The position numbers and the translations under genes were made by a program. This document shows positions 1-64,000 of a stretch of DNA of 64,000 nt, piece by piece. Source of the stretch: Haplodiscus bocki. Its lineage: Eukaryota. The notes under the pieces are model-generated. The model was not told where the DNA came from. It made no database searches and saw nothing but the letters and a program-made list of their open reading frames with translations. Each line of letters starts with the position of its first letter. The stretch's first letter is position 1. Where the stretch lies: contig OZ296649.1 in the NCBI GenBank assembly GCA_965655095.1, positions 68,200,001 through 68,264,000 on the forward strand. Direction: 5' to 3'.

Positions 1-1430
1 GAATATTTTCGAGTGGTTTTGTTCGCGTAACTTATTCTTATTAAACTGAGAGGTTGCGGCTGAATTTTATTCATTCTTAACTATGTCTTAAAGAATTCAC
101 TCTATGTTGTTTGGCACAACTACGAGACGTTCAGTTCACAACCATGCATTAGCCAGTACTGCAGACCTTGCACGTTCTACTTGTTTCCTGACATGGGGAT
201 GCTACGCTGGTACCTTACCGCCTTTAAGTTCACCGCCCGGTATAGAGTGAATGTTTTTCTACAACAAATCCTATCAACTCTGTGCAAACGAGTTGTTTCT
301 TAGTTCTAAATTTTATAATCTCGATTACTGGTGGTTGTGGTTCTGACTTTCTATCTTCTCAAATTTTAGCAAGCTCTGAACAAATTTCATCTTTCTTTAA
401 TGTTCTTTCGAATGCGTGTTTTCAGGTTCTCGTCACATATATAGTTCGTTAGTAGTAAATCTAGGATTACTTCACTACTATTAAATTGAAAAAGTCGTTT
501 TAACTACTTTATGGCTACTAAAAAGGGATTTGCTTAAAACTTGCTATATAAAAAGTGAAAGAACAAATTTGTTAAGTTGGTTGAATATTTTCTTTTGAGT
601 CTCGAATATCATTAAAGCAAATAATTTTTTGCAACGAACTAAGATTATATATTATATTCTTTTGAACTCACGACATGATGCTGATATAGAAGGTTGAGGA
701 TTGAGATTCTTGTGGTGTTATCGTGTGACGAAGTGAGGGCCCTTGCTTTCTTCTGTTGTCGTCGATGAATATGTCGTGTGGCGAAGTGAGGGCCCTTGCC
801 TTCTTCTGTTGTCGTCGATGTTATTGAATACAAAATTTGGATTTGAGAAAGACAGAGTTTGATTTCTTTTTTTATTTCAGATTGATACAAAGACGTCTAA
901 CGCCAACTTTTGTAGTTCTGAAAATTTTACACCAGCAGCTGTAGAATATCGGCGTTGATTTTCTGTCTCTCAAAATGGGTGGCTAAGAGCAGAGTTTTGC
1001 GAGGCTGTCTTATATACTCTGCCCGGCGTGATCAGTTTTCACGCCTGTTGATATTTTGACGATTTTTAGCTTTTTTTGTCGATCTGGTGCAATCGATGGC
1101 GTAAAAAGTTTCTGGAGTTCGTCCTTGGAATGTTCTGGAATCTTGGTTGTCAAAGCGTTTCCAGGACGTTGCTGTGATGTAGCAGCCATCTCCAAGAGAT
1201 TGTTAAAGCACCAGAAATCATCGCCATTTTAATAATAATTCTGCACTTTTTTTAGACTAAGGTGGCGTAATATTTTGTCATGAGACGTGGCGTGATCAGA
1301 AATATGATAAGTGCAATCTAATTTAGGAATAATAGAGGTGAGCACCACAATTTGAATACAAAAAGTAGTTCAAGAATGTTCGTGTTTAAAAATGTTCTTG
1401 TTTTTTTCTTTTGACAAATTCTGGTTGTCA
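1..1430 (-). repeat. 3' LTR of the Gypsy element (truncated by window start)
   Basis: Matches 11290-12718 at offset ~11289; starts TGACAACC on the minus strand, just after the PPT. Confidence 0.95.
721..826. repeat. 53-bp tandem duplication inside the LTR (also at 12010-12115)
   Basis: tcgtgtgacgaagtgagggcccttgctttcttctgttgtcgtcgatg... repeated twice with few mismatches. Confidence 0.9.
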
Positions 1431-1704
1431 TAATGCTTTCCTTCTCGAAGTTTGTGTCCCACAAACTAAACTGAGACATCGTTGATGGGTTCAAGAAGAT
1501 GGACTGATTGACCATGCGAGGAGCGCTGATGGATAGTTGTGAAAGGGCCCGTAAAAAACTGCGATATGTGGAATGGTTTGTCCTTTTTAGGATCACTGGG
1601 CCACGGGGAGGCGTGATTTTGAGTATGGGGTATTGACTGTCATCAAGGAGTTGAACCATATCATCTACGCCAACGTTGTGAGTTCGACCATCACAAGTTG
1701 TCAT
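1318..1704 (-). CDS. Possible accessory ORF (128 aa) between env and the 3' LTR, running across the PPT into the LTR; unknown product
   Basis: Open ATG-initiated frame in sense orientation; frame open to ~1776 with an AG acceptor-like site near 1802; no recognisable motif. Confidence 0.3.
   Translation of the reverse strand: MTTCDGRTHNVGVDDMVQLLDDSQYPILKITPPRGPVILKRTNHSTYRSFLRALSQLSISAPRMVNQSIFLNPSTMSQFSLWDTNFEKESIMTTRICQKKKTRTFLNTNILELLFVFKLWCSPLLFLN
1436..1446 (-). promoter_or_regulatory. Polypurine tract GAGAAGGAAAG
   Basis: All-purine run on the minus strand 5 nt upstream of the 3' LTR start. Confidence 0.75.
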
Positions 1705-2694
1705 TGATGCAGACGGTAGGCTAAAATATTCACGGGGAGATGCGGAAACCGTCTCGCAATTAGGAAGCTGCTGAGCTTACAAAAGGGGTTCGCTGATGAA
1801 CTGAATTAAAAGATTCAAGTAATAATGTGAACAGTTAGGTTAGTAAAAATCTTTTGAAGGGGTAGAAGAGCCGGTTACTATAATTTGAAGTTTATTAAGT
1901 ATCATTGTCTCAATTGTTTTTTCATGGTTGGGGTGTCTACGTTGAAAAGTAAAAAATTATAATGTTGAGGCGGAGGTTGGGCAAGCAAGGGCATGCGGGG
2001 GTCGCAACAAAGTAAATCTAGGTCTTTCATGAACAAAAAATGGTCGTGGTGAAGCACATCAGGGGGAATTGGAATGAGTGGGGTAATATGGTGTTCGGAA
2101 ACAGGGGTTACAAATAGGGGGTGAATCAGGGCCGTTTAGACATTGGTGGTCAAAACAATGAATAACGGCTGGGGAAGAAGACAAGTGGAACACAAAGTTA
2201 TAGAGGATTTCGGGCAAAAGCGACAGGTTGACGGCAAAATGGACAGCATGTGGCTCGGTGTGTAGAAGGTGACAAGTGTGTCAACGTCTTGGAGGCAAGT
2301 GAGACATTGTTGAAGGCTGAAATGGACTAAATGGCGGATTAGAGGGAGGGTACGCTAGTGCCGCACAGAGGTTCCGAAGAGGCGTTTACTTTTTTTGAGA
2401 ATTACCTTTTTTACGTGGTAACTTTTGTACATTTAAACACTATGATACATTACTTGCAAAGGATACTTAGGCTGATGTGGTTTGTGGGGTATCGACGTGA
2501 GAAACCGGAGCTGGAGTAAAGGTGGTCAGAACCAATTGAGATGTAGTACGGATGGTTCTGGTTCATGCGGTGACGTCCGGGTACAGTTTTTCTTCATCTT
2601 CGGCGGAGTAAGCAAACGGTGCATTAGCTTCAGTCTTTAGTAAGGCTTCTTTAGCAAGAGCACGAAGCGCGGTGAATTCTTGTCGAGTTAAAAT

Positions 2695-4845
2695 TTAAAA
2701 AGAAGAGTCTGAGTCTGGTTTAATGTCGTTCGTGACATGAACAACTTGGCCAGATTTATTCTTGAAGAAACGACGTGGGGCACAGCAAAGTGCACGTGCC
2801 TGTCTGTGAAAGAGTGGAAAGTTAAGTATAAACAAAAATAAAGAAAGTACGATTGATCCGCCTGCGATTAAGAATGAAGTTTTCGCCGGTACAAAATTGT
2901 CAAGTGCTGCTTCGGTGGCAGGATTGAGAGACGTATAGTGTGCAACAATTGGTTCAGTCAGTTGTTGTAAAGTCTCTGGGTCCATTCGTCTAACGTCTGG
3001 ATTTTCAGTCAGTTTAACTGTAAGCTCTCTAGAATTGATTTCCGGGCTGCACCGATGGAGTAACTTGGAAAATTGAGTTTGTCAAACGGGACGTACTGAA
3101 AGACTTGGTTCAAAGGGGGTGCCAGTTTGATTGTTGCAATGTATGGTTCCGGAGTCGTTTGACATGCATCCATATCGTTTGACAGAAAAAGATCGCCTTG
3201 ATTAATGTAAAGAGTACTTTCACAACTTGGTCGAAGGACGCATGCCTGACAATCGATTGTGGACAAACTGAGTCCATTTGATCAGCTATCGTTCTTAACG
3301 TCGATTGTAGGGTGGCGAGAGATGAGGTGGTAGACGCCATTTGCCAAGTAGATTCCCTGTGGGGCTTCTGGAAGAAGAACAGAGGTAACGGGGCAATTAC
3401 GGAGTGCTGGAATGTCTTGATTAAAATACAACGACGTGAGACAGAGAAGCGTTTAATCAGTAGTAGTCGAAAAGCCTTTGAGGCACAGTTTGATTCGATT
3501 ACTGCCCGTGCATTGTTGTAGCGTAGACGCAGCTAACTCTGCAAAATTGGTATTGTCTGTTGCAGTCGCGACGTAGGGTTTCGGAAATTGGTAAACTGAT
3601 GCCGTTTTGCCGTCATCGTTGGGTTTGTATAGAGGTTCGGCTTGGAAAATATTGTGGGTCGCAGATTTGGAGGTCATTGGAATGCCAAGAACAAAAGAAA
3701 TGCCTTTAGGCAACAGCGTGACTTCTAATACGATTTGCAATTCGTAATAGATAGCTTCGAATCCCGATGGTATAGCAGGCGTCAGTTTGCTACCTTTCCG
3801 AAATTCTTCAGCAGCGAGTTCTTGCACTATTTTGGCGAGCTGTGTTGGAAGCAGGAATTGTGGTGTGATGTGTCCCGTAGCGAGAGATGAGATTATTGAG
3901 AAGAAATTGTTTCTATATGCGTAAAATACTAAACGAAATGCTTTAAAGTGTGTGTACAATGTACCAATTTGTGACAAATACAATTATGAGGACTGAAGAA
4001 AGTGGCGGTAAGCACTTTCGAATTGATAACCTCGAAACGCATCTTCAAGAGTGTATATACGCTCGATCATATTTGAAATACGTAGGTAGGTGTCGTTTTT
4101 AATTCGTTCAACACTTTCCTGGGTCAGACGAATTTCGTCTCGAGGTAAAGCAAATTTTTCGTTGTTCTTCTCTTGGACCATCTGAAATGCCTGTTGTTGT
4201 GTTTTTTGTTGTTTGGTCACTTGAGCGAGTTCTCGTTCTATTTCTTCAATAGAATCACAAAGATTAAAAATGGAGAGTGCATTACTTGCTACATTTTTAA
4301 TTGGTTCTCCCAGGGTGAATGCTGTGCCAGCCGCTAGTGTTGCAACAACATCAATGAGCCGACGTGTTCTGTTGTGAGGTTCTTCCTCAACAGTTGAGCG
4401 TCTTTGTCGAGAGGTTCCCAGAGATGCTGTTGGTGGGAAGAAAGATTCTGCAATGGCACTCAGAGTGTTGAGTTCGGATTGTGCTTCGTGAATTTCAGTC
4501 TTAAGATGATTGTACAAGTTTTCCATTTGTTGTAGGACCGGTATGTGGGATTCATTGAACGTATTGTTATTACAACCTGACTGTGTGACTCGGTGTTGCA
4601 TGTGTGAGAGCTTCTCATTGCTTTCGAGAACGATAACACGCACGCTGTCAATATTAACGTCTGGGAGCGTCGGGAAAGGAGAGAATAGTCGGACTTGGCT
4701 CTCACTTTCGTAAGTCACAACTTGGTATTTAAAGATGAAAGCAGCTCCCCGTTTGAATTCCGGTAGCTGTTGTTTGTTCTCAATCGAATACTGTATGGTG
4801 TTCGCAATGCAAAGCGTTGTCCAGATGTATAGTAGCGTTGTGATC
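2695..4845 (-). pseudogene. env: env: class I (F-type) fusion glycoprotein, disrupted; cytoplasmic tail may extend to ~2467
   Basis: Signal-like ITTLLYIWTTLCIA, furin sites RQRR and RTRR, fusion peptide LIDVVATLAAGTAFTLG, heptad repeat, GHITPQFLLPTQL motif, Cys-rich region, TM FLIAGGSIVLSLFLFILNF; stops at 3984, 3453, ~3280 and a frameshift near 3010. Confidence 0.85.
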
Positions 4846-6836
4846 CTGAAAGGAGATCTTCGTTATTTCTGATAATGCGTTTTTCGTTCGCTCGTAGGAG
4901 TTTTATGAAATTTTGTTCCCGACTGTTTTTGTATTTTTCGCTCTGGAGAGTTATAACTTGTAACTATATCAGGAAGATATGTCGTAAAAAGTGGTTGTGC
5001 TTTTCTTTGGGAGGACGTATTAGGTCGTAATTGCATGGAAGACGTGTTTGCTGGAGGCGTTCTTCGAAGATTTCTAGCTGCGGCATCCACAATTGCTGTG
5101 ACGTTGTCGCCTGGTGATTATCTTTCGTGGAGAAAAACATTCTCAGGTATGAGAGGTTGTATGTTAATTTGAGGAGTAGTCGGTGATTGTATGGCAACGT
5201 CATTTCTTGTGTGTGGACTAGGTTGTTCTAATGTCGGTGATCGCGAGAACACAGGAGGCGATCTCGTTACTTCACGTTTCACCGGGTTGGGCGGAGTTTT
5301 TGGTGTAATTCTACTTGCTGTGACGGATGCGGCTGTTCGTCCTACGGCAGGTATTGGTGTGAAAATACTAGAAGGTGCAGGTAGGAAAGTTAAACAATCA
5401 TCGTGATTAAGTGTTCCATCTATGTGTTTGCGTGCGTCTGCTATGTCTTGAGTTGACTGAAAACTTCTTGGTTTATTTCTCGTAGGTACATTGGACGTTG
5501 GCGGGGGTTCGAAAAATGGTTGTAGTCTATCGTAATGCACAATTTGTTGTTTTGATGCATTTTCTTCTTTAACTCTTAATGCGAAATCGTTCAAACATTT
5601 TTCGATCACATACGGTTCTTTCCAAGGGCTTGCGAACTTAAAAGTTGTGCCAACAGGAATAGCTGGATGATAGAGTAAAACTTTTTGTCCTTCTTTATAT
5701 GTCGGGCCGTGGACCTTTTTATTATAGATAGCATTTCGGCGTTTTTGTTTTTCAATCAAGTTGTGTCGAACTAGCTCAAATGCCCGTTGAAATGCTTGCC
5801 GTTTATTGTGTACAAATTCATGAATATCAGTCGTTGTATTTTCTTGTGGGTTAGGATACATGCAATCTAAAGGTAAACTCAATTCTTGTCCGAAAACTAA
5901 GAATTGCGTTGTGTATCCTGTTGATTCATGTACAGAAGATCGATACGCCATCATAACGTACGGCATTTGTTGTGAACAGTTACTTTGTTCTTCGTTTATA
6001 CATTTTGCTAACATGTTTTGTAAAGTTTTATTCATTCTTTCCATCACTGCATTTGACTGAGGATGAAAAGGTGTTGTTCTAGTTTTATCTATTTCAAGAA
6101 GTTGCATTATTTGTTCAAAAAGTTTTGATTCGAAGTTTTGGCCTTGATCGCTGTGCAGGCTATGTGGGCAACCAAATCGACTGATCCAATGATCAACTAA
6201 GGCGTTGGCAGTTGTGACGGCCGTTTGATCTGGTAATGGTATTGCTTCATACCATTTTGTGAAATGGTCGCCAATTACTAAGATGTGTTTGTTTCCATTT
6301 GATAACGGCAAAGGTCCCATGAAATCAATTCCAATGTGATGAAAAGGATAACTGGCTTGCCATTCTACTTGTGCGTGATGATAATTCTTGGGCGGTCCCG
6401 AACGTTTTTGACATTCGGGGCACCGACTGACAAACAATTTTGTGTCTTCCTGCAGTCCTGGCCAGTAAAATCTTTGTTTTATTTTCTCTGAGGTTTTAGC
6501 AACTCCTAAATGTCCGGCTGTTGGTGATGAAAGACACGCTGATAGGATTTCTTGCGTCATTGATGGTGGTACTGTATGTTGTAATAGCACTTGGTTATCT
6601 GCGGTTTCGAATTTTCTGCACAAAATTCCATCGAGGAGTTGTAAACTTTTCAGTTGGTTGTTGAGTTGCCACGCGAGCCGAGGAAGTCCTTGCAGTTCTT
6701 CTGATATGAGCACTTTTCCTTTTTCGATCCATTGAATAAGTTTGGACAATGCTTCATCTTGACGTTGTGCTTGGCCTAGTGCAGAGTGCACTGGCGTTTC
6801 ATCTTGTTTCTGTGATTGTTCATCTTTATTTTGATC

Positions 6837-7225
6837 ATAGACTGTGATAGTTAAGTTTGACTGTGCGCAAATTTCTTTGATAAGGTGTTCTACTTTGTGC
6901 CATTGTAACCGATCATGTCCACAACCGGTTTTTGGCATACTGTGAGTGGTTTTGTGTTTGTTAGCATTATCATGGCTTCTAGTGATTTTCGCAAACTATC
7001 GTAGGTTGGTTTTTGTAAGAAACGTTTCTTCGTAACTAAGTGGTAGATGAAGCGATCATCTAGTTGTTGAACAAAAAGTGGAAAATTAGTGCTCTCTGGA
7101 AGGTTTTACGGAAACTTGCGTTTGAAACTTCGGGCAATTCCCGCAGACATTTTAAAATCTGATGATACGCAGTGGGCTAAGGAATCTTTTGAGTCGAAAA
7201 GATTGCCAGCTTTATGAATGAGTTC
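6837..7225 (-). pseudogene. TARG1/OARD1 (Poa1p-like) macrodomain embedded in pol between RNase H and integrase
   Basis: Manual translation: ELIHKAGNLFDSKDSLAHCVSSDFKMSAGIARSFKRKFP*...[30 protein letters not shown]/fs/[35 protein letters not shown]. It follows the TARG1 motifs GDLF, DSLAHC, MGAGIA, YYLITKK, KPTY..L.KSLEAM, SMPRIGCGLDRLQW and ITVY in order. Confidence 0.9.
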
Positions 7226-9480
7226 AGAAAATTTCGTTTTTTTTGGGTTTATTTAGTTTTTCTTTGCTTTGAGGAGTAGTCACGTGATCAACAATTGGTA
7301 TTCGTGAAAGTCCGTCGGCATGACCATGGCTTTTGCCGGGTCTGTCTTGCACCTCATAGTCAATTGCTGCTAACTTTTCGAGCCATCGTGCTGTTAATCT
7401 ATCTGGATCTTTAGAGTTATGTAACCACTGCAGTGCACGAAGATCAGTGACAATTTTGAATTTTCTTCCAAGAAGGTAATGTTTAAAGTGTCGATTGAAG
7501 GTTACAATTGCTAAAAGTTCTCGTTTCGTTGCAGAATAGTTTGTTTGAGATTTTGAAAATGCCTTTGATGCATAGCAAATAGCTCGCTCTTTTCCGTCTT
7601 GCCTTTGGGCTAATACTGCTACCATTGCTGTTAAACTTGCGTCAGTATACAAAATAAATGGTTCTTTTACGTCCCGGAAGGCTAGGATTGGTGTGGATGA
7701 CAAATGTTTCTTCAAACTCTCAAATGCTTCTTGCGTTTCTTTTGTCCAAGTAAACGAGCTCTTAGTTTCACTAGCTTTGTGCAATGGTTGTGCTATCATA
7801 GCAAAGTTTTTAACATACTGTCGATAATATGAACAAAGTCCTAAGAACGACTTGACATCTGTTTGGTTTTGTGGTACCGGAAAGTTTTGAACTGCTTCAA
7901 CTTTTTCGGGATCGGCCTTCAATCCGTTTTTGCTGATTACGTGTCCTAAGAACTGAAATTTTGTTTGGAAAAAGGCACATTTTGTCGGATTGATTTTTAA
8001 ATTCGCCTCGCGAAATCTTTGAAATACTTGTTGCAGTCTTTTATTGTGTTCTGCTGGTGTTTTTGAAAAGACGATGCAGTCATCTAAGTAAGGTACGGTA
8101 ATGTTCCACGTGAGTCCAACAAGCACGTGTTCCATTAAACTTTGAAATGTTTTCGGACTACCCGTCAATCCCATTGGCATGCGTAGCCCTTTAAATGATC
8201 CGAAAGGAGTACTAAACGCTGTATCGTTTTGGCTTTTAGGTTCCATTGGCAACTGATAAAATCCCCATGACATATCTATTGTTGTGAAGTAAGCACTTCC
8301 GTGAAGTGTATCAAAAATTTCTTCAATTCACGGTATCGGCCAACAAGACTTGATTGTTTGTTCATTTAGTTTTCTGTAGTCTATTACTAATCGTAGTTTT
8401 CCGTTCTTTTTCGGAACTAGCATTGCTGGTGCACTATAAGGACTATGACATGGTTTGATCAATTCTTTTGACCTGAAGGCATCTATTTCCTCTTTTAAAT
8501 CATCTTTGTAATGCACTAGCATTCTTCTATTCGGTAGTCTTATTGGTTGTGAGCCTGGCTTCACATCTCTTCTATGACTAGTTGCATCACATTTTCCGAG
8601 GTCCCATTGATTGATTGAAAAAATATCACTATAGTCATCTAATAAATTTCTAAAATCTGCCCTGCAGTTATTGTTTATTTCTTTACTAATTGCTTTCTTT
8701 ACTTTCTCCAAGTCGTACTTGGGATCCTCTTCATTATAATTTTTCATTTGTTTCTGATTTATTTCTTGTATCAGACGATCTGATACCAGTTGTGACGATC
8801 CCAATGTTGTATCTTTGTAAATTGTTAAAACTTCATCAATTGTATTTGCTACTGTGATAGGAACTATTCCTTTTTCAAAACTAAACAATGCATCATGTGC
8901 TATCTGATTTTCATTATCTATAAAACGCTCGTGCGGTTCAAACAAAGCGACTCTCGCTACTGGTGGCGCTTTCCAACCAGGAATTGTGCCAGGCACAATC
9001 ATAACATGTTGTGGTGGAATTGAGACTTTCTCTAATGCCGCTACTCTATAAACTTGCTCTTCGTCGAACGAAAACTTTTTTTTGTAAAGAGGGACCAATG
9101 TTTTTCTATGGATTTGCAATTTGCTTTCGGAAAATAGTGCATCACATTTATTTGTTTCAAGAAAATCAAGTCCCAGTAAACAATCGGATGCTGCTTCTAT
9201 TAAGACGTAAAATGTAAGCTCGTACGTTTTGGAAATTATTTTGATTGGTACGGATACTGTGCCTTTAATTTGAATGGGCATCTGATTTGCGCTGCTGAGT
9301 CTTGTTGTACTTGGTTGTATTTTGACTTGATGATTTTCGTTGATTTGGTTGAAAAGTTTTTCGTTGAGACATGACACGCTCGCTCCACTATCGCAAACGG
9401 CTTCTACCTGTTTGTTCAAAATTGAAATCTGTACTTACAAACTTCGATGATCCACAACGGAAATGGGAAACTGAGTGAGT

Positions 9481-9539
9481 GGGCCTTCATTAGTGTCGTC
9501 TACGTGTTGACCCTGGGACGTAGACTGGTCTAGCTTAAA
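9481..9539 (-). promoter_or_regulatory. Putative -1 ribosomal frameshift signal (degenerate slippery site plus stem/pseudoknot) at the gag-pol junction
   Basis: T TTA AGC TAG (one change from UUUAAAC), then perfect 8-bp stem GTCTACGT/ACGTAGAC whose loop GGGTC can pair with downstream GGCCC; pol is in the -1 frame relative to gag. Confidence 0.7.
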
Positions 9540-10818
9540 GTATTTTGTTGCTGAGAGGTATTTGCGTTGCGGTCTTGATTGAAATTTCGTGAATTTTGGT
9601 TAACATTCGAATTTTGTTGCCTATTGTTTTGATTTTGTTGCAGTGCTCTACATTCACGAGACATGTGTCGCAGTCTTCCGCAATTAAAACATGCTGGACA
9701 ATCCCCGGACTGGTGATTTCTTCTGTTACAATGCCTACATGGTTGTTGGTTTGTGTTATTTCTGTTTTGTTGCTGGTTTGATGTATTGCGATTGTTATTA
9801 TATCTGTTGTTTTGTTGATTGCCACTGTTATTGTATCTGTTGTTCTGATTGTTGTTGTATCTATTGTTGTCGTTGTTTCAATTTCTGTAGTTTTGGTTTT
9901 GGTTTGTCTTTGCACTTTGTCTGTTTGGTCCGGGACTATTAAAACGAACGAAACGACCGTCGGTACTACCTGTACGTGAATTCGCAGAGTTTTGATTTGT
10001 TTGTGGTAATGCTTTTTGAATTTTCTGTCGGATTGTTTGTATTAATGTTCCCATCATATCATCTTGTGAGGTGGATGCTGTTGCCATCAATGGTTGAGGT
10101 GGAGTGGCCAAAACCATGTTACTATGGCGTGAGATCCACTTCTGAGACTGGGATCCATTTCCATGAAAGCATGCAATTCGACCGCGAGGGCCAGAGCAGC
10201 ATCCGGACTGGTTGGTTTACTTTTTTGAAGTTCCCATCTGAGTTTTGCATCGTGAAATCCTTCGATAAAACTAGTGAGAACCATTTGTTCTTCGATGAGG
10301 GGTTGTCCCCTATAAACTCTCCTAGCAATTGTTCGAACATCACAAAGAAACGCGGCGATGGTCTGGTTTGGTTGCTGCCGAGCAGCTTTCAGCTTTGCTT
10401 TAAGAACTTCAACATTTGTTGTGTACGTGGTGCGAAAAGCTGCTACTAACTGGTCAAAATTCTGTTGTTGTGCTACTGTGAGTGTTGTGTAGAAATGCAG
10501 AGCATTTCCTTTGAGTCCTTATGCAAAATAGTTCGGTCGGTTATAAGTGGTGGCTGTTTGCCATCCTGAAAGTGTTGCTGATGTTGTGAATTGTTGCAAA
10601 TAATCTTCGAAATCTCCTTCGCCGGTGAAAGCTTCTGGCATTAAACACGACGGGAGGGCCGAAAAAACTGCGCCGGCGGCGGCCGTTGACGTGCATGGTG
10701 CGGCCGGTGAGAGAGGAGTGAGAAAAACTGAAACGCCGCTACCTGATCCTGATCCGGGTCCAGCGCCACCACCGCTTCGTGGTGATCCGCTTCGTGATCC
10801 GGGGGCTGACGAAGACAT
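9530..10818 (-). pseudogene. gag: gag (capsid, N/Q-rich linker, two CCHC zinc knuckles), disrupted
   Basis: ATG at 10818; PEAFTGEGDFEDYLQQF...W and *GLKGNALHFY capsid-like motifs; CRHCNRRNHQSGDC-PA-CFNCGRLRHMSREC at 9650-9739; terminal TAG at 9530-9532; internal stop at 10519 plus frameshifts. Confidence 0.88.
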
Positions 10819-11036
10819 TTTGAGCACGAAAACGTTCTTAAGTCTTATTGAGTTTTAACCGAACAAGCACACTGTTTAAAGTTTTAAAGAAAAAAACAAA
10901 AACTGCTTAAAGAACAAATACACTTTTAGACAAACACGCACTATCTGAGAATTTTGTTCAACCAACTTCTTTTTTTTATTAACCAGCTCCTCTCAAGAGC
11001 GAAACAAAGTAGTTTTAATTTTAAGTTGTTTTAAGA

Positions 11037-11130
11037 GCAGCCGTTCGAGAAAGCAACCGTTCGAGAAAGCAACCGTTCGAGAAAGCAACCGTTCGAGAAA
11101 GCAACCGTTCGAGAAAGCAACCGTTCGAGA
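11037..11130. repeat. 16-bp minisatellite (GCAACCGTTCGAGAAA) x ~6 in the element 5' leader
   Basis: Direct reading: five full units plus a partial one. Confidence 0.95.
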
Positions 11131-11238
11131 TCTGAACGTTTTACCACTTACCTTGTGCTGGCAACAGAAGGTTTGAGGATTAAACAGTTTTACGTTGTAC
11201 CAAAAACACACAAAAAAACAAAAGAAGGAGAAAGTCAG

Positions 11239-11256
11239 ATCCCACCCTTGTCACCA
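11239..11256 (-). promoter_or_regulatory. Primer-binding site TGGTGACAAGGGTGGGAT (tRNA-Leu-like; Ser not excluded)
   Basis: 18 nt starting TGG just inside the 5' LTR, complementary to a tRNA 3' end ...ATCCCACCCTTGTCA-CCA. Confidence 0.85.
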
Positions 11257-11262
11257 TTTTTC

Positions 11263-12718
11263 TGACGTGTGTTTTGCATCTTGAGTGATCAATATTTTCG
11301 AGTGGTTTTGTTCGCGTAACTTATTTTTATTAAACTGAGAGGTTGCGGCTTGATTTTATTCTTTCTTAACTATGTCTTAAAGAATTCACTCTATGTTGTT
11401 TGGCACAACTACGAGACGTTCAGTTCACAACCATGCATTAGCCAGTATTGCAGACCTTGCACGTTCTACTTGTTTCCTGACATGGGGATGCTACGCTGGT
11501 ACCTTACCACCTTTAAGTTCACCGCCCGGTATAGAGTGAATGTTTTTCTACAACAAATCCTATCAACTCTGTGCAAACGAGTTGTTTCTTAGTTCTAAAT
11601 TTTGTAATCTCGATTACTGGTGGTGGTGGTTCTGACTTTCTATCTTCTCAAATTTTAGCAAGCTCTGAACAAATTTCATCTTTCTTTAATGTTCTTTCGA
11701 ATGCGTGTTTTCAGATTCTCGTCACATATATAGTTCGTTAGTAGTAAATCTAGGATTACTTCACTACTATTAAATTGAAAAAGTCGTTTTAACTACTTTA
11801 TGGCTACTAAAAAGGGATTTGCTTAAAACTTGCTATATAAAAAGTGAAAGAACAAATTTGTTAAGTTGGTTGAATATTTTCTTTTGAGTCTCGAATATCA
11901 TTAAAGCAAATAATTTTTTGCAACGAACTAAGATTATATATTATATTCTTTTGAACTCACGACATGATGCTGATATAGAAGGTTGAGGATTGAGATTCTT
12001 GTGGTGTTATCGTGTGACGAAGTGAGGGCCCTTGCTTTCTTCTGTTGTCGTCGATGAATATGTCGTGTGGCGAAGTGAGGGCCCTTGCCTTCTTCTGTTG
12101 TCGTCGATGTTATTGAATACAAAATTTGGATTTGAGAAAGACAGAGTTTGATTTCTTTTTTTATTTCAGATTGATACAAAGACGTCTAACGCCAACTTTT
12201 GTAGTTCTGAAAATTTTACACCAGCAGCTGTAGAATATCGGCGTTGATTTTCTGTCTCTCAAAATGGGTGGCTAAGAGCAGAGTTTTGCGAGGCTGTCTT
12301 ATATACTCTGCCCGGCGTGATCAGTTTTCACGCCTGTTGATATTTTGACGATTTTTAGCTTTTTTTGTCGATCTGGTGCAATCGATGGCGTAAAAAGTTT
12401 CTGGAGTTCGTCCTTGGAATGTTCTGGAATCTTGGTTGTCAAAGCGTTTCCAGGACGTTGCTGTGATGTAGCAGCCATCTCCAAGAGATTGTTAAAGCAC
12501 CAGAAATCATCGTCATTTTAATAATAATTCTGCACTTTTTTTAGACTAAGGTGGCGTGATATTTTGTCATGAGACGTGGCGTGATCAGAAATATGATAAG
12601 TGCAATCTAATTTAAGAATAATAGAGGTGAGCACCACAATTAGAATACAAAAAGTAGTTCAAGAATGTTCGTGTTTAAAAATTTTCTTGTTTTTTCTTTT
12701 GACAATTTCTGGTTGTCT
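11263..12718 (-). repeat. 5' LTR of the Gypsy element (~1456 bp)
   Basis: Ends ...ACGTCA on the minus strand 6 nt before the PBS; begins AGACAACC (T>A versus the 3' LTR); TGAC...GTCA terminal inverted repeat; roughly 17 differences from the 3' LTR by eye. Confidence 0.93.
12299..12305 (-). promoter_or_regulatory. Candidate LTR TATA box (TATATAA); same motif at 1010-1016 in the 3' LTR
   Basis: TATATAA ~415 nt into the LTR on the sense strand, with AATAAA about 140 nt further on (871-876 in the 3' LTR). Confidence 0.5.
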
Positions 12719-14200
12719 TAATATTATAACTTATTATAACCTAATGGCACTATTCGCAGATTGCCCGGTCTGCCATTTGCCAAATTCAAGTTATAGGTGC
12801 ATTTTTTTTGTCACGTGTTTTCTTGTTTTATAAAAACGTGTATCGATTTAAAAGTAGGGGCAGAAAATTACATGCAAAGATAGACACCGAGTACTTCTTT
12901 ACATTAAAAGTTATCAGGATGCTTGTGCATTGAGCACGCAAACTGCTAAGAAGCCAAAGACGTTGGTTACAGTTTGCGGAGTAAATAGTGAACCCTGTCT
13001 CAAAGGACTGACAGAATTATTCCTTGGTACAAACAAGCCAAGTTGGCATGCTCCAAAAATGTAATGAGTTTTAATACTTAAGTCTCAAATTTAACGGGGT
13101 AATCTGTCGGGTACTCTTATATTACTGCAATACCAATCAAGCAACAGCTGAGCAGGCTATAATTTCTGGTTTGAAAATATCAATAGTTGACGTCAGTGTT
13201 AATACATGTATTTACGATAATGTAACTTTTTTTCAAACAAGAAGTTGGAGCGATAGTGCATTTGGTAATTGCTTAATTTGAAAAAAAAATGACAAAGAAG
13301 CTGGGGAAGATTAAGATCAAGAGAGCACTGAAGAGGGCGAAAGGGAAAAGGATGTGAAAATAGTGAACAAGGCATTGATAGCAAACGAATTTAAGGGCCA
13401 TTTTTGTGAATTACCTCAAGTGGACTGAAGAAACGACTCTTTAACTGCATGCGTTATCACAAAATACATTTTTGAGCTGGCTCTAGGATGACCCGGACAC
13501 GACAATCAAGACCAAACACGAATCCGCAACAAACATGAGCTCGATCCGAATTATTTCGATAACTGGTAAAATGATTCAATTTTTTTTAAAAAAAAACAGA
13601 CGAATTCTGCAAATTCTACAAAATTTTTCGAATTGTACAACGTTGATTAAAATAGAACGACCCGCGGCACAATTTTTTCCATTTTGAAAAACAATTATCA
13701 CTAAAGCTACAACTTTTATCCAAATTTTTTCCAAAACAAATTTGAGAATATCAGGGAGTTGATTAGGTTGTTTTAAAATTGTTGGGCATCTGTTATGAAA
13801 GTATGGAAATGTGAATGTCGAATGAGTATGTTTTTGATCGTTTTTTGGTTTTTTTGGAAAAGGTTTTTGTGTTACCTTTTAGTTATTGCGAATGGAGGAT
13901 ATCCTCGCATATTTTGACAAACTTCCCCTATTTCGACTATGAGAACAAAGGTTTGATTGATTTCGGCATTCTTCACCCCTTCCACCGTAAGCTCTATCAA
14001 AACTAGGTGTAGTGGGATATTTATCAACCTTTTAAGAAGTCTTTTCTGGAAAGCCCGGTTTTCTATAATTCCATCAGGTAACCAGAAGCTTAGATTTGAC
14101 ATTTTCCCGGTGTTTTAGTACTTTCTGCTCTCTCGGTATCAAAGTCAATTATTACCTTTTTCGAAAAATTTCGCTATTTTCATTTTAAAAAACTTAATAC

Positions 14201-37483: not shown

Positions 37484-40400
37484 GTGGGACATTTACAGGC
37501 AATGCATTTGAAAGAAGAAGTGATTTCACGAAGTCCTTCCTGGCAATCATCACTGGAAGCTGCTAGAAATGAAATTCTGGAAAAGAAGGAAAAGCAAGCT
37601 ATCGAACGACGAAAAAAACAACGAAGAAAAGAACTAATGAAAGTGCAATCAATGAAAGTCCCTTTAACAGTTCCATCAAAAACAGTAACTTTCACTCCGA
37701 CAGTGAGTACTTCAAAGGTGGAGACAATGTCAGTCGCGTCATTTGTGTCATTCCATGGTGACGATTGTCACAATATCTCCGACAACAAGCACTGAACTAG
37801 CAGTGTCTGCCAGTGGTGGGAATGCAAAGAAGAATAACCTGAGTTCAAGTGAAACTCAAAAAACCAAAAGTGGAGCGCTCGAATTTGACAGACTATCACT
37901 TGGATCAAACTGTTCCAATGGTAGTCAAAAAAGACAACAGTCATCAAGCAGTCATCTGAAACATCAAAAACTGAAGCTCGAGCTGGAGTCTAAACGAATC
38001 AAATTACAAGCAGAGCAATATCAAAAACAGAAAGGGGAAGATTTGCGACAACTGCAAGAGAAAATGCAACTTCTGGAATTGGAACATTAACTACGCCAGT
38101 GCGGTGGCGAAAGTGAATATGAAACAGTTACTGGCTTTAAAGTCCTCGATGTTTGGAATTATTTGGAACTGGATAACAACAGTCTTGTTGGCTCTAAAGC
38201 TGTGATTGGCATCATGGCTCCACTGGTATCGCAGTCAGACGTCCGAACTAAGCTTTCAAATGATTAGCAGAATAATGTTTTGAACGATTTGCCTAACGAA
38301 AACGGATTTGATCTCAGTACGCTCAAAGTCAAAGCTGAAGAAACACCGAAGTTTTCGCTATTCCCTACTTTGAGTGCGGAATCTCCACTGAGGAGATTAC
38401 TGGGTGAGTTCACTCCAACATATTTTCAGACAAGTTCGATTCCAATGGAAAACATGGGAGCAGTGAATTCAGCTAACAAAAACCATCAAAGTGCGGGTCA
38501 AATGGCATTCAATGGTCGATATTTACCCAAAATTAAACTGAAGGAGTTTGCTGGCGACCCTTTGGAATGGCAGGAATGGAGTGGAAATCTCAGTCTACAG
38601 TTGGGAGAAATTCAAAAACCAATGATGAGAAAATGAGTCATTTTATAACTTCACCGACATGTGCGGCGAGGAGATCAGTTCAAGGTTTGGTTTATTCTGG
38701 GTCCATGTTCAGCGCTGCTTAGAATACTTTGGAAAGAAAGTTTGGACAACTTTATTTCATCATATCCGCACAGCTATCCAGAATATAGTAGTATCCATCA
38801 ATGAAATATCAGGATTCTAAAAGTTTAGTGGACTTTGCTGATATCCTTTCAGATTTTGTTGGTGTTCTTCAACAATTTGGTTACTCTAACAACTTATTTT
38901 CGACGAGCATTCTGGAAATGGTCTTTGGAAAGTTGCCTCTTGACATGAGACGCAAGTGGTTTGTAATTATTGAGAAACACCAAATCCGTGCAAAACCACC
39001 TAGCTTGATGGATTTGAATACTTGGCTACAAGAGCAGGCATTTGTACATGAGCGCTTTTTGAGTGGCTTGAAAACATCAGAGTATGATCTCGGCAGGCCC
39101 AATGAGGATTCCAAGAAAAGGGATCCAAAAGACCGCAAGTGTATTTCCGAAGTCGTTGTCAGTGACAAAAAGAGCACTAACCATTGCCCATTGCGAGACG
39201 GTGTCCAACGTATTTGGCAATGTGAAGCCTTCAAGAAAAGGTTCGCAGATGATCGCTAAAAGGTTGTGAAAAACGAAAGAAATTGTTTGTCATGTCTCAA
39301 TGGTAGCCATCAAAACAACCATTGCAAAACAGGAAAGTGTGGCATTGATGCACAATCGGTTGCTTCACAGAGCAGTCAAGTCAGTGGAGGCTGCCGTTAG
39401 CAAAGCAGAAACAAATATGACAACTATCAGTGGAACCAATGTGCGAGGAGCTTTGCCAGTGGTTCCAATCAGGGTCCATGGGCAAATTGGGTCTCATGAA
39501 GACACCATGGTTTTGTGTGATACCGGCTGGTCACAGACATGGGTTGATCAAGTGTTCTGAGAAAAGCTCAATTTGGATGGAGAGGAAAAGACAATTCATG
39601 TAGCTGGTAACCACGGTACCTCACCAATTCAGAGCCAGGAAGTTGAAGTTCTACTTGGGCCGGCAGATAGCAGTGCCGCTAACACATGTACTATATTGTT
39701 GAACAGTCTCAAGATTTTTGCCGTTGGAAAAGAAGATTTTGACTTGAGGCCACTGTAGCGAAAGTATGGTCATTTTTCATGCATTTGTCAAAACACCATA
39801 CGCCTGTCTGAAGTGGAGGTATTGCTAGGACAGGACGCATTCCCTTGATCTGCCCTGTTGCCTTCAAGAATCGTGGCACGAATACCCCTTGTGCAGTCAA
39901 GTTGTCACTGGCTTGGACGCTAAGCGGACCATTTCCCGCCTCAGAAAAGGCAAAATTCTATTCAGTCTGTAGTAAGAGCGAAGAATTGACAGCTGTTGTG
40001 AAACAATGGTGGATTTTGGAGTCCTACAGAACAGTGGTTTCGGTGGATGATTATAGCAGCGGTGAGAAACAAGCTTTATCTCATGTCAATAATACTATTT
40101 AATTTAAGGACGGAATATACATTGTGGGTCTCCTTTCGAATGGACAGCAAAAGGACCTTTAGAACAACTATTCGGCTGCCCTCAGCCAGCTGAAGTCACT
40201 CGAGGAAAGATTTGGCAAAAATGAATTTTTGAAAGATTGTTTTTCTGACACTATTGAAAGTGACCTGAAGAAGGGGCATGTCTCAAAATTGGAGACATCA
40301 GATAACATCAGTGAAACTCTGTGTTGGTATCTTCCTCATCATTCTGTTCTCAGCCCGACCAAACTTGAAAAGGTACGAAGAGTTTAAAATGCTACAAGCA

Positions 40401-43282
40401 AACTCAGAGGAACTTCTTTGAATGACGTATTGTTGATTGGACGAGACCTACTACAGAGTTTGTGGGGTATTATCCTCTTATTCCGAGAAAAGCCTGTAAC
40501 CCTGTTGGCAGACATTGAAAAAATGTTTCTCCTGGTGGAAGTGGAAGTAGACGACAGAAACTTATTTCGAGTTTTATGGAGAAAGCATGATGGACAATTA
40601 CAAATGATGGGTTTAACAATTACATTTTTCGAGCAAAGTCATCACCAACATGTGTTAATTTTGCACTTCAGCAGTGAGGAAAAGACTCAGAGACTTGGAG
40701 GCCCACAAAGTGGTTTTGTCAAGCTTTTATATGGATGAATTGTTGGTTTCAGTCGAAGATGTTGAGAGAGCCAAGGTTTAGTCGAGTGAATTGCAGACAG
40801 TGCTTATGACAGGGAGTTTCAACTTGACTAAATGGGGTTCAAACGACGCAGATGTATTCAAAGATTGAACACCAGCCAAGAAAAACCCTACAGTACTCGA
40901 GCTGCAATGGCCGCTAGAGCGCGACGAATTGAAACTTTGTTCTGGGGTCTCTTTCGAAAGTCAACATCAGTGGACAAAGAGAGAAGTGTTATCAAAAGTG
41001 TCAAATCGATTTGACCCATTGGGTTTTATGTTTCTATTCTCAATAAGAAGGAAACTGGTCATGAACAACATCTGGCAAACTCAATGGCAACTATGGGAAA
41101 AGCCAATTGGAGAGAGTTCGGAGAAAACTTTCAATACCTGAAATTTAGAGTTATCGCAAAACAATACAATGGCTGTACAATGATTGTTCAAAATGACTAA
41201 CAATGAAAAACGAGAGCTGCATGCTTCTGGAGATGCTTCATAGGACGCCGTTTGTGCAGTTGCATACGTGGTGAAAGGTATAGATTACAGGCATGTCAGT
41301 TTTGCCATGGACAAACCAAGATTTGCACCAATGAAGCATCATACCATACCTAAGCTGGAACTAATGGCAGCTGTTACTGCAACAAGATTGAAAGAGATGT
41401 TGATTAAAAAACTTGAGTGTAACTTCAGTGGAATCTTCATGTGGACAGATTCGACGACTCTGTTACAGTGGATTAGAATCAGTGACAAGAAGCAACCAGT
41501 CTTTGTGGCCGATAGAATAGCGGAAATTTTGTTTTCGACAACAGTGGATCGTTGAAATCACAACGATGGCGTAAAGGACCCAGCTAATCTGGGAGCACGT
41601 GGCATCAGCCATCCAGAATTTATGGAAAGTGATTGGGTGTAGGGTCCTCTTTGACTGAAAGACGAGGACTTGATATCACATTTTGATCAAAATTTGACTA
41701 GTGAAGACCAACAAGTGGATGATCACTTTAAAGAGGCCACCAATTTTGAAACGCAGGCGTTTTCTGGGGCTTTAGCTCAAAAGTCAATTGAGTGGGGACG
41801 ATGTTCACAGTTCAACCGCTTCAAGTTTATGGTAAAGCCATTTCTGTAAATGCTCTCAAAATGCAGATGTTTGAGTTTGGTCCAGCTAATATTGTTGGCA
41901 GAATTCAAAATCTGGTTGCTAGTGCAGCATGAGTGTTCTTCGAGTGAATGTATTGCTTTGAGGAAGACCATGATGGTACATAGCAAGAGCAAGTTAATTG
42001 GACTCTTGCCGTTTTTAGACAGTGATGATATCATGCATTCGAATGGAAGACTACGCAAAGCAGATGAGGAGTATCAGACAAAACACGTCATCATACTGCA
42101 CAGTCAACACAGGGCAGGGAAACATTTTCTCGATGAAATGCACAAAACATGCCATCATGATGGTGATGAATATCTGAGAAGCGAAGTCCAGCAAAAGTTT
42201 TGGATAATTGGTTTGAGGAATGCTCTTCGATCTGTGAAGCATGATTATGTTCATTGCAAGAATTTGGCACGAGCAATGAATATTCAAATGTCAAACCTAC
42301 CAGCAAGTAGATTGGATGGAACGAATCATCTTTTCCGTATATGTGGAGTGGATAACTTCGGGCCATTCCAAGTGAAACACTCCCAGAAGACAGTGAGAAA
42401 TGTGATTTTTCTGTTCACCTGTTTCAGCACCAGAGCAATCCACCTCAAAATTGTGTCGTCACTGGACACGCCAAGTTTTTTAGATGCCACTCATAGATTT
42501 TTGGCTAGACGAGGGTGTCCAAAAATCATTCTATCCGTCAAAGGTACCAATTTGGTTGAAGCAGCTCAAGGGTTTCGTGAACTACTTTCCGGTTTGCATG
42601 GAACTCAACTGGAAGAAGATACTGTCAAATTGGGTATCAATTGGACATTCAACCCATCGAGGGAACCACAGTTTGCCGGAGTTTAGGAAAATTTGGCGAG
42701 ATCACGCAAGAAAGCCATATTTAATATTCTTGGTTCTCAATCGCTGAAGGAAGAGCAACTGACAACGATAATTTGTTCAGTGGAAGAACTGCTTATTATC
42801 AGTCCTTGACAGCATCCAGCAGCGATACTGCAGATTTGGAGGCACTTCGTTCAAACGATTTCATCTCCGGACGATCTACGTTTGACTACCCAAGTGTAGT
42901 ATTCAATGGTGGGTCCACTGCCTTGAAAAAGGCTTTCTGGGCACTTAGTCAATTCATGAAGAAGTTATGGGACAGGTGGATGAAGGAAAATCTACCGCAG
43001 TTGACAACAAGAAAGAAATGGGCAACTGAAGAGAAACGACTGATGTCAGTTGGAGAATTTGTTTGGATTTGAGACGAGCAATGTCACCCCTTTAACTACC
43101 CTATGGGAAGAAATCTGGAGCTTCACACTGGTGACGATGAAGTATCCAGATCAGCAACAGTAAAGACTAGTCGAGAACAATTCAAAAGACCGCATGTCAA
43201 CTCGGTTCGTCCGGAGATTGACCGCAATGATGTGTTTTTGACGACCAAAGCCATGGCCGGCGATGTTGCAGTCGAAGACTGA
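37484..43282 (+). pseudogene. BEL/Pao gag-pol polyprotein, fragmented
   Basis: LPKIKLKEFAGDPLEWQEW (gag), Cys-His clusters at ~39180-39370, LCDTG (PR), ADIEKMF (RT), GDAS/TIPKLELMAAV/WTDST (RNase H), GVDNFGP (IN), WDRWMKENLPQL (C-terminal domain). Confidence 0.9.
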
Positions 43283-58800: not shown

Positions 58801-59039
58801 TTCGACAGTTATAAGTCCAGCCTTGCTTTTTTTCGCGTTACTTTTTATTCTTTTGGTGCTATAATTCATAGTCTGTCCTTTTTAGACGCTGTTTTTCGCT
58901 GTGGTTGATTTCATTTAGGAAGATAAAGCTTCCAGATGTTGCGAGTTTAATGACGGAGAAAACAGTCCCCGTTTTTTTCCGATAAACCAGCGTTAAAACT
59001 CGGCCGGTATTTTACCGGTATAGCAGCGGAAACTACCGC

Positions 59040-62000: not shown

Positions 62001-64000
62001 AACGCTACTGAGGCCGCTATTTTTTCTGTTCAACGCCGTTAACGCCGCTATTTTTCCGCTTCAACGCCGTTAACGCCGCTATTTTTCCAGTTCAATGCCG
62101 TTAACGCCGCTATTTTTCCACTGCAACGGCGTTAACACAGCTATTTTTCCGGTTAAACGCCGTTAACGCCGCTATTTTTCCGGTTCAACGCCGTTAACGC
62201 CGCTATTTTTCCGCTTCAACGCCGTTAACACAGCTATTTTTCCGGTTCAACGCAGTTAACGCCGCTATTTTTCCAGTTCAATGCCGTTAACGCCGCTTTT
62301 TTTCCACTGCAATGCCGTTAACACAGCTATTTTTCCGGTTAAACGCCTTTAACGCCGCTAATTTCCCTGTTCAACGCCATTAACGCTACTTTTTTCCGGT
62401 TCAACGCCGTTAACACCGCTATTTTTCCAGTTCAATGCCGTTAACGCCGCTATTTTTCCACTTCAACGCCGTTAACACAGCTATTTTTCCGGCTAAATGC
62501 CTTTAACGCTGCTATTTTCCCGGTTAAACGCCGTTAACGCCGCTATCTTTCCGGTTAAACACCTTTAACGCCGCTATTTTCCCAGTTCAACGCTACTGAG
62601 GCCGCTATTTTTTCGGTTCAACGCCGTTAACGCCGCTATTTTTCCGCTTCAACGCCGTTAACACAGCTATTTTTCCGGTTCAACGCCGTTAACGCCGCTA
62701 TTTTTCCAGTTCAACGCCGTTAACGCCGCTATTTTTCCGCTTCAACGCCGTTAACACAGCTATTTTTCCGGTTCAACGCCGTTAACGCCGCTATTTTTCC
62801 AGTTCAATGCCGTTAACGCCGCTATTTTTCCACTGCAATGCCGTTAACACAGCTATTTTTCCGGTTAAACGCCTTTAACGCCGCTAATTTCCCTGTTCAA
62901 CGCCATTAACGCTACTTTTTTTCCGGTTCAACGCCATTAACACCGCTATTTTTCCAGTTCAATGCCGTTAAAACAGCTATTTTCCCGGTTAAATGCCTTT
63001 AACGCTGCTATTTTCCCGGTTAAACGCCGTTAACGCCGCTATTTTCCCGGTTCAACGCTACTGAGGCCGCTATTTTTCCACTTCAACGCCGTTAAAACAG
63101 CTATTTTCCCGGTTAAATGCCTTTAACGCTGCTATTTTCCCGGTTAAACGCCGTTAACGCCGCTATTTTCCCGGTTCAACGCTACTGAGGCCGCTATTTT
63201 TTCTGTTCAACGCCGTTAACGCCGCTATTTTTCCGCTTCAACGCCGTTAACGCCGCTATTTTTCCAGTTCAATGCCGTTAACGCCGCTATTTTTCCACTG
63301 CAACGGCGTTAACACAGCTATTTTTCCGGTTAAACGCCGTTAACGCCGCTATTTTTCCGGTTCAACGCCGTTAACGCCGCTATTTTTCCGCTTCAACGCC
63401 GTTAACACAGCTATTTTTCCGGTTCAACGCCGTTAACGCCGCTATTTTTCCAGTTCAATGCCGTTAACGCCGCTTTTTTTCCACTGCAATGCCGTTAACA
63501 CAGCTATTTTTCCGGTTAAACGCCTTTAACGCCGCTAATTTCCCTGTTCAACGCCATTAACGCTACTTTTTTTCCGGTTCAACGCCGTTAACACCGCTAT
63601 TTTTCCAGTTCAATGCCGTTAACGCCGCTATTTTTCCACTTCAACGCCGTTAACACAGCTATTTTTCCGGCTAAATGCCTTTAACGCTGCTATTTTCCCG
63701 GTTAAACGCCGTTAACGCCGCTATCTTTCCGGTTAAACACCTTTAACGCCGCTATTTTCCCAGTTCAACGCTACTGAGGCCGCTATTTTTTCGGTTCAAC
63801 GCCGTTAACGCCGCTATTTTTCCGCTTCAACGCCGTTAACACAGCTATTTTTCCGGTTCAACGCCGTTAACGCCGCTATTTTTCCAGTTCAACGCCGTTA
63901 ACGCCGCTATTTTTCCGCTTCAACGCCATTAACGCTACTTTTTTTCCGGTTCAACGCCGTTAACACCGCTATTTTTCCAGTTCAATGCCGTTAACGCCGC
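59040..64000. repeat. 31-bp satellite (AACGCCGTTAACGCCGCTATTTTTCCGGTTC) with higher-order repeats; runs past window end
   Basis: About 160 monomers; diagnostic variants recur at 248, 806, 1612 and 1178 bp. Confidence 0.97.

Follow-up and report, generated by a model that had tools for sequence, protein, structure and literature searches.

The stretch of Haplodiscus bocki DNA analyzed here (64,000 nucleotides, hereafter the window) opens with a Gypsy retroelement, and a sequence-only reading of it had recognized a TARG1/OARD1-type macrodomain, the fold of a human ADP-ribose-removing enzyme, within the pol gene of this element. The locus therefore raises the question of what an ADP-ribosylhydrolase fold is doing in a retroelement polyprotein: whether the domain is truly of the TARG1 type, whether it belongs to a family of elements or to a single broken copy, and what has kept it in place.

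The element fills the first 12.7 kb of the window, LTR to LTR, and all of its features lie on the minus strand. The 3' LTR (1..1434) is 98.8% identical to positions 11291-12722 of the 5' LTR (11263..12722) over 1433 nt, with 16 mismatches and 1 gap, and the flanking genome shows that it extends ~27 bases beyond the first base of the window to a terminus of GTCA. A primer-binding-site-like sequence beginning with TGG was read directly after the 5' LTR (11241..11256). Gag with a zinc knuckle is split over several frames at 9530..10854 (Pfam Retrotrans_gag E 1e-7, zf-CCHC E 1e-5) and is followed by protease (~9156-9434) and reverse transcriptase (RT) within 7749..9434 (gag-asp_proteas E 1.5e-8, RVT_1 E 2e-26), a stretch with in-frame stops near 8330 and 9437, by RNase H ending in ADGLSR at 7303..7748 (RT_RNaseH and RT_RNaseH_2, E < 1e-31), and by the integrase zinc finger and catalytic core at 6060..6572 (Integrase_H2C2 E 5e-19, rve E 2e-11), with the integrase C-terminal domain downstream of the core. 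The order of gag and then protease-RT-RNase H-integrase, found by Pfam in both the window ORFs and the sister pols, together with two LTRs and the primer-binding-site-like sequence, is that of Ty3/Gypsy. A broken env-like gene at 2470..4862, which shares 86-89% identity with a 797-aa ORF from a sister copy, has stops near 3986, 3455, 3284, 2697 and 2565 and a frame change near 3016. Downstream of it, tblastn with a sister ORF recovered the decayed remnant of a RING-finger accessory ORF (2026..2345) in three pieces and three frames (E 7e-23); the RING identity comes from sister ORFs that score zf-C3HC4_3 at E 7e-5 and 2e-4, under the curated cut-off.

With four stops and two frame changes in pol and five stops and one frame change in env, the window copy is a dead member of its family and cannot make the protein. 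These roughly nine stops and three frame changes exceed the decay expected from the identity of the LTRs, perhaps reflecting mobilization of an already dead template or gene conversion between the LTRs. Repeats were also seen in the element, with a 16-nt unit present six times in the gag leader (11020-11146) and a 47-nt unit duplicated within both LTRs (721-820 and 12010-12109). Elsewhere in the window, ORF remnants with a BEL/Pao-type look by eye lie on the plus strand at 38792-39259 and 41850-42686, and a tandem array of more than 150 copies of a 31-nt unit occupies 58920-64000 and reaches the window end.

The macrodomain lies between RNase H and the integrase zinc finger in two pieces. Its N-terminal part ([42 protein letters not shown]) runs over ~7219-6971 with one in-frame stop at 7106-7108, and its C-terminal part ([18 protein letters not shown]) occupies 6837..6965 in the integrase frame; of the two frame changes, the first lies near 7240-7260 in an A-rich linker ahead of the domain and the second near 6945-6975 within it. 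The N-terminal part holds the equivalents of TARG1 His32 (7172-7174), Ser35 (7163-7165) and Lys84 (7028-7030), and the C-terminal part those of Gly123 (6918-6920) and Asp125 (6912-6914), which we take to be a binding-loop residue and the catalytic partner, respectively. In the window copy, His replaces the Leu124 of TARG1 and of the sister copies (GCGHD vs GCGLD). The sequence-only reading had described one stop and two frameshifts and had proposed that Lys84 and Asp125 were retained; we found all of these, with the motifs at the coordinates it gave, on the minus strand. It was also right that the C-terminal part shares the integrase ORF, but this ORF runs from stop to stop over 5118-6995, and the boundary given for it, 6938, is the first Met. 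The domain does stand upstream of integrase, as proposed, but it does not directly adjoin the zinc finger: ~90 residues separate the two, comprising a short linker and a region of one helix plus three strands (6573..6782, from the secondary structure of a sister model) that would fit the 'mini' domain described for ancient errantiviruses (PMC13524379).

When the two pieces were compared separately with PDB chains by phmmer, each matched TARG1/OARD1 independently, at E 3.8e-17 for the N-terminal part (with X at the stop) and E 3.8e-7 for the C-terminal part. Human TARG1 was likewise the best PDB sequence match of a natural sister domain, and relative to these matches (E 4e-17, 8e-28 for the sister, and 4e-7) the next macrodomains were at least three orders weaker, a resemblance in sequence far beyond chance. 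The profile check that had been suggested gave a divided answer, since Pfam Macro, in contrast to phmmer, made no match on either window piece. On intact sisters it reached 22.1 bits for P0096 (cut-off 22) and 17 bits for P0112 and P0142, and its failure on the window pieces reflects a low sensitivity of Pfam to TARG1-type domains. This combination of misses and borderline scores may be why the domain is easily overlooked.

Structure prediction, also suggested earlier, agreed with the sequence matches. In a model of the segment from RNase H to the zinc finger of a natural sister, the macrodomain was predicted with pLDDT mostly 67-95, flanked by two low-confidence linkers, and Foldseek with this model returned TARG1 at ranks 1-8, the best with a TM of 0.85 over the target, 2.0 A and 45% identity. 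DarG structures ranked next, and the MacroD-type domains of alpha- and coronaviruses far lower. An ESM Atlas search with the RNase H-macrodomain-zinc finger segment returned generic RNase H/integrase clusters only, at 0.80 or less. The TARG1-type identity first proposed from motifs is thus borne out by the matches of both pieces and by the predicted fold of a sister.

Sister copies show whether the domain belongs to the family. A search of the 1.5 Gb host genome gave 6,069 first-look candidates, a figure that is not a copy number; among the 150 best-scoring ones, 143 had no stop inside the match and ~65, by hand count, lay in open pol frames of at least 1,500 aa. Twenty loci were fetched from six subfamilies, and in 20/20 of these pols the macrodomain stands in frame between RNase H and integrase. 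The same env family was present in 18/18 loci long enough to show env, with all six subfamilies env-bearing, and a protein database entry (P0142) represents a seventh subfamily. A macrodomain in the pol of an env-bearing Gypsy element, as originally described, is therefore a trait of the family with intact, in-frame copies in this genome and not a peculiarity of the dead window copy. His32, Lys84, Gly123 and Asp125 are each kept in 20/20 host pols and Ser35 in 19/20. Just after RNase H, all six subfamilies have a hydrophobic-Asn (or Gln)-x-hydrophobic motif, which we take to be a putative Gypsy protease site. Searches of viral contigs and of JGI metagenomes returned 11 loci at 30-44% identity and one contig at 82%, respectively; contigs from two sequencing runs of one study, which may itself be the source of the DNA, cover all 30 bins of positions 6000-8000, which is not independent support and is silent on expression.

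The domain is under purifying selection. Among copies picked for open frames, which lowers pN, pN/pS of the macrodomain was 0.04 in subfamily A, 0.10 in C, 0.14 in D and 0.09 in F, with too few differences to measure in B and E. These values are near those of RT, RNase H and integrase, and the linkers have values of 0.21-0.53. Between subfamilies the macrodomain is 54% identical; the linkers reach 12-21%, RT 84% and the integrase core 73%. Synonymous sites are saturated at this distance (pS 0.79), so the invariance of the active-site residues does not merely reflect recent ancestry. With TARG1 matched by sequence, sister copies holding the domain in frame and selection acting on it, none of the sequence-level outcomes that had been named as counting against the sequence-only reading occurred.

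The env of the family is probably an F-type class I fusogen. For the 797-aa ORF of a sister, the nearest ESM Atlas clusters were Baculo_F and paramyxovirus F at 0.94-0.96, with a recognition value of 1552 that is below the tool's mark of 2300; env had no Pfam match, nothing below E 0.08 in a PDB sequence search, and a single-sequence model that was unusable at pLDDT 35. Downstream of env, the subfamily of the window carries one or two RING-like ORFs plus a small orphan ORF, all with Pfam scores below cut-off (L071:1097-1516 on the minus strand; L072:2600-3019 and 3658-4101 on the plus strand). Other subfamilies instead have an ORF of more than 300 aa with a coiled coil and, in those copies whose end was retrieved, a J-domain-like HPD motif (L083:7997-9001 on the plus strand, with DnaJ at E 1.8e-5, below cut-off; also L076, L080, L082, L086 and L088).

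The capture had been pictured as an event in a single element, but TARG1-type domains recur across several lineages of Gypsy elements, at three different places in pol. A second env-bearing lineage of the same genome, lineage H, accounts for 11/15 loci picked from an RT search (L179-L192), with a pol of ~1,640 aa and an RT 43-46% identical to that of the window's family. In this lineage the same slot is occupied by a diverged TARG1-type domain (TARG1 match at E 1e-15), which retains Ser35, Lys84 and Asp125 but has other residues in place of His32, the Gly-rich loop and Gly123. This domain is nevertheless constrained (pN/pS 0.14), indicating that selection can maintain the fold even when the ADP-ribose pocket is not intact. 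A distantly related env is present in 3/3 lineage H loci (L194-L196). Downstream of env in one of them lies a 392-aa antisense ORF (L194:4543-5718, minus strand) with a His-x-Glu..His pattern that looks JmjC-like by eye; it has no Pfam match at E 0.01 and is not known as an element part. In a more distant Gypsy group of the same genome, collected by an integrase search, the macrodomain was absent in 30/30 loci, showing that the domain is not needed to multiply in this host.

Gypsy pols of other hosts extend the pattern. P0145 and P0146 carry the macrodomain after integrase, and a search from P0148 gave 38 long proteins, of which 37 were analyzed (one non-pol protein seen earlier was left out) and 27 had pol domains; named hosts among these other pols include Harmonia axyridis, Sipha flava, Rhynchophorus ferrugineus and Uroleucon formosanum. 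Among the 27, some of which are automatic gene models that could be misjoined, 14 have the macrodomain between RNase H and integrase, 7 have it downstream of integrase (two of them judged from weak integrase matches) and 4 ahead of RT; in the other 2 it follows RNase H and no integrase was seen. All 27 retain His32 and Lys84, and 26/27 retain Asp125. In RT trees, the macrodomain-bearing elements are scattered over several distant lineages, and in the macrodomain tree an AU test rejected a single clade of all retroelement domains (p=0.013). Clades of the window's family alone (0.51), or with addition of the host gene (0.24), four other RNase H-linked domains (0.14) or P0145 and P0146 (0.12), were not rejected. 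The test used 60 of 151 domains (20 drawn at random) over 136 columns, leaving out lineage H. These trees lend modest support to at least two acquisitions of a macrodomain by Gypsy elements.

Several further sequences were noted during this comparison. In two pols the bridge contains one further macrodomain, degenerate and arranged in tandem with the first (P0308 residues 661-787 and P0317 residues 879-1007). These copies score 25.8 and 44.0 bits, respectively, where shuffled sequences reach at most 5.7 and 9.5, and macrodomains in decay may account for some of the 'pseudo' domains in the bridge of errantiviruses. In P0233 and P0182 a protease is directly followed by a macrodomain of the host clade with no RT in the same frame, and no close copy was present among 82 scored matches in the host genome. 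P0229, the polyprotein of an insect RNA virus that includes a TARG1-like domain, falls near the element clade in trees with moderate support.

The host genome contains both a possible cellular counterpart of such a domain and candidate ADP-ribose transferases for it to oppose. A lizard OARD1 query gave a single OARD1-like match that stood out (P0315 = L031:1486-2469, minus strand), with the macrodomain in one open frame, at the end of a 328-codon frame and behind ~180 residues without a Pfam match. This candidate host OARD1 has no DNA similarity to the element and stands apart from the element domains in the best trees, with the joint clade not rejected by the AU test given above. Of 31 PARP-domain matches, counted in this genome alone, the 16 ORFs picked for long open frames comprised nine SF1/ZNFX1-type helicase-PARP fusions (L102-L109, L114), PARP1, tankyrase, three WWE-PARPs, an ankyrin-WGR protein and a PARP-only ORF. 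Eight of the at least nine fusions are 1,680-2,243 aa in one frame with one or two PARP domains, and the two that were inspected have a cysteine-rich stretch and an H-Y-E triad. ZNFX1 is an RNA-sensing defense helicase.

Our leading explanation, which we consider plausible at slightly less than even chances, is that the domain is a working enzyme within the Pol of this env-bearing Gypsy clade, an eraser that counters host ADP-ribosylation. The element would make a candidate TARG1-type ADP-ribosylhydrolase as part of the Pol polyprotein, and because Pol is packaged, as is established for Gypsy elements, the domain would enter the particle with it. Cleavage at the protease-site-like motif after RNase H would leave the domain on the integrase side, in line with the sequence-only reading, so that processing probably retains it on the N-terminal side of integrase. 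From there it could strip ADP-ribose that host defense PARPs may place on element RNA, single-stranded cDNA or proteins, a role modeled on RNA virus macrodomains and on the phage protein AdfM. Near-invariant active-site residues in domains that share only 54% identity between subfamilies argue for this explanation, the presence at three positions in pol is easier to explain for an enzyme than for a structural part bound to one place, the nine helicase-PARP fusions are candidate transferases, and the RING and J-domain ORFs show that the same elements carry other accessory genes. Counting against it, lineage H is selected without an intact pocket, a macrodomain-less family multiplies in the same genome, and nothing links the helicase-PARPs to these elements.

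Some of this evidence could also be accommodated if the domain were a reader rather than an eraser, binding ADP-ribose or poly(ADP-ribose) on chromatin or DNA breaks and steering integrase in the way of the chromodomain of chromoviruses. The position after integrase in P0145, P0146 and 7/27 other pols (two of these on weak integrase matches) is that of the chromodomain, in the host clade the domain probably stays with integrase, and both lineage H and the degenerate copies in P0308 and P0317 are retained without a full active site. A pure reader, however, need not keep the Lys84 and Asp125 that persist in all 20 host pols and in 27/27 and 26/27 of the others, 4/27 of those pols have the domain before RT, and the changes in lineage H strike the binding pocket itself, given the role we presume for Gly123; we regard a reader as unlikely. 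Slightly more unlikely still in our judgment is a clean-up enzyme with no immune role that removes the PARP marks of DNA damage from cDNA ends, nicks or integrase, for which the host has a canonical PARP1, the position beside integrase is suitable, and TARG1 itself acts on DNA termini and is recruited to damage (reviews including PMC11088682). The macrodomain-less Gypsy family of this genome speaks against such a function, and repeated gain and relocation would be more typical of conflict genes. To our knowledge, almost every known Gypsy element and retrovirus manages integration with no macrodomain.

The fold might instead have been co-opted for nucleic-acid binding or as a folded spacer of the bridge, its residues kept by structure or recent ancestry. 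Several small domains unrelated to one another are accommodated in the errantivirus bridge (PMC13524379), there are lineage H and the degenerate tandem copies, and the domain is less conserved between subfamilies than RT or the integrase core; but saturated synonymous sites argue against recent ancestry, and the same residues are kept in what appear to be separate acquisitions, making a role unrelated to ADP-ribose distinctly improbable. A neutral passenger, left by a one-off insertion of a host OARD1 retrocopy, is suggested by the broken window copy and by the open frame of the domain in the host OARD1-like gene, but 143 of the best 150 matches are stop-free with ~65 in full-length pol frames, pN/pS is 0.04-0.14 and the element shares no DNA similarity with the host gene. 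The open-frame copies and the selection on them refute it, leaving it a negligible chance. Returning to the eraser, its broadest form is that TARG1-type erasers are a recurrent and undescribed accessory module of Ty3/Gypsy Pol in animals, gained more than once and retained with an intact catalytic site because invertebrate hosts restrict the elements by ADP-ribosylation of their RNA or cDNA, with an expanded set of ZNFX1-type helicase-PARP fusions as the writers in this host; we put this forward tentatively and would sooner doubt than assume it.

Human TARG1/OARD1/C6orf130 (4J5Q, 4J5R, 4J5S, 2L8R) is the closest solved relative of the domain and shares with it the His32, Ser35, Lys84, Gly123 and Asp125 positions, but TARG1 is a stand-alone cellular enzyme whereas the element's domain forms part of a retroelement polyprotein and, in the subfamily of the window, lacks a few residues in the segment behind the first long helix. 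TARG1 is reported to strip ADP-ribose off acidic residues as well as the ends of DNA and RNA and to be recruited to damage (reviews including PMC11088682), to remove terminal ADP-ribose from DNA and RNA (PMC11088682), and to undo thymidine-linked ADP-ribosylation on DNA, with loss of function in K84A (PMC8501950). On the retroelement side, the family resembles env-carrying Ty3/Gypsy elements (errantiviruses in the wide sense), in particular the 'ancient' group with F-type env of Chary and Hayashi (PMC13524379), in its LTR-gag-PR-RT-RH-IN-env-LTR order, its probable F-type env and its 'mini'-like region before the zinc finger. That 2026 structural survey assigns RNase H, mini and pseudo-RNase H domains to the bridge but names no macrodomain, the terms macro, ADP, OARD and Poa1 being absent from its main text and its supplements giving hits to species names only; this comparison rests on the text of the survey, with its 'pseudo outlier' and 'Other' classes outside it. 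The present domain adds to the list of Pol accessory domains a Pfam-elusive member that the survey (PMC13524379), devoted to this same region, does not name. Word searches of PMC9503650, of PMC4245714 (among the passages listed) and of PMC5408684 found no retroelement macrodomain. At the level of abstracts, and outside Repbase, GyDB, CDD, subscription journals and bioRxiv supplements, the literature gave no report of a macrodomain in Gypsy pol, and it may well have been annotated before.

In certain fish retroviruses, pol carries an insertion that separates RT from integrase, and if this insertion is the macro domain, the arrangement seen here would have a retroviral precedent. Some fish epsilon-like endogenous retroviruses carry macro domain ORFs, termed additional ORFs (Basta et al. 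2009, as described in the review PMC4977317), and by the description in that review they are, like the present family, retrovirus-like elements with a captured macro domain, but they belong to Retroviridae and not to Ty3/Gypsy. The closest functional model is AdfM of chimalliviruses, a DarG/TARG1-like macrodomain of a mobile element that removes ADP-ribose added to phage DNA by host DarT (PMC13309987); AdfM differs in being a stand-alone protein and in setting a phage against a bacterial DarT. With the element domain scoring 35.5 bits against a DarG model whose cut-off is 250, AdfM and DarG would be functional analogues at most. Positive-strand RNA viruses also place a macrodomain inside a viral polyprotein (alphavirus nsP3, coronavirus nsp3 and P0229), those of alphaviruses and coronaviruses being MacroD-type and that of P0229 of the same TARG1 type as in the element, but these viruses have no DNA stage. 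TARG1-like homologues are reported from many viral genomes (PMC4245714).

ADP-ribosylation is an established antiviral and anti-phage weapon for which direct evidence against LTR retroelements in animals is thin, and a selected eraser-type domain that keeps its catalytic residues, in Pol of several Gypsy lineages and at several positions, is the sort of footprint expected of a conflict with PARPs, hinting that animals may tag such elements with ADP-ribose. If true, this would be a conflict of PARP against macrodomain over an endogenous retroelement, parallel to those of RNA viruses and phages, and it could be tested within one genome that holds the eraser domain, candidate writers and natural controls in the form of a degenerate lineage and a macrodomain-less family. 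Macrodomains are known from RNA viruses, phages and fish retroviruses, and what appears new here is a selected module of the TARG1 type in Gypsy Pol, with its catalytic residues intact and present in several lineages and at several positions.
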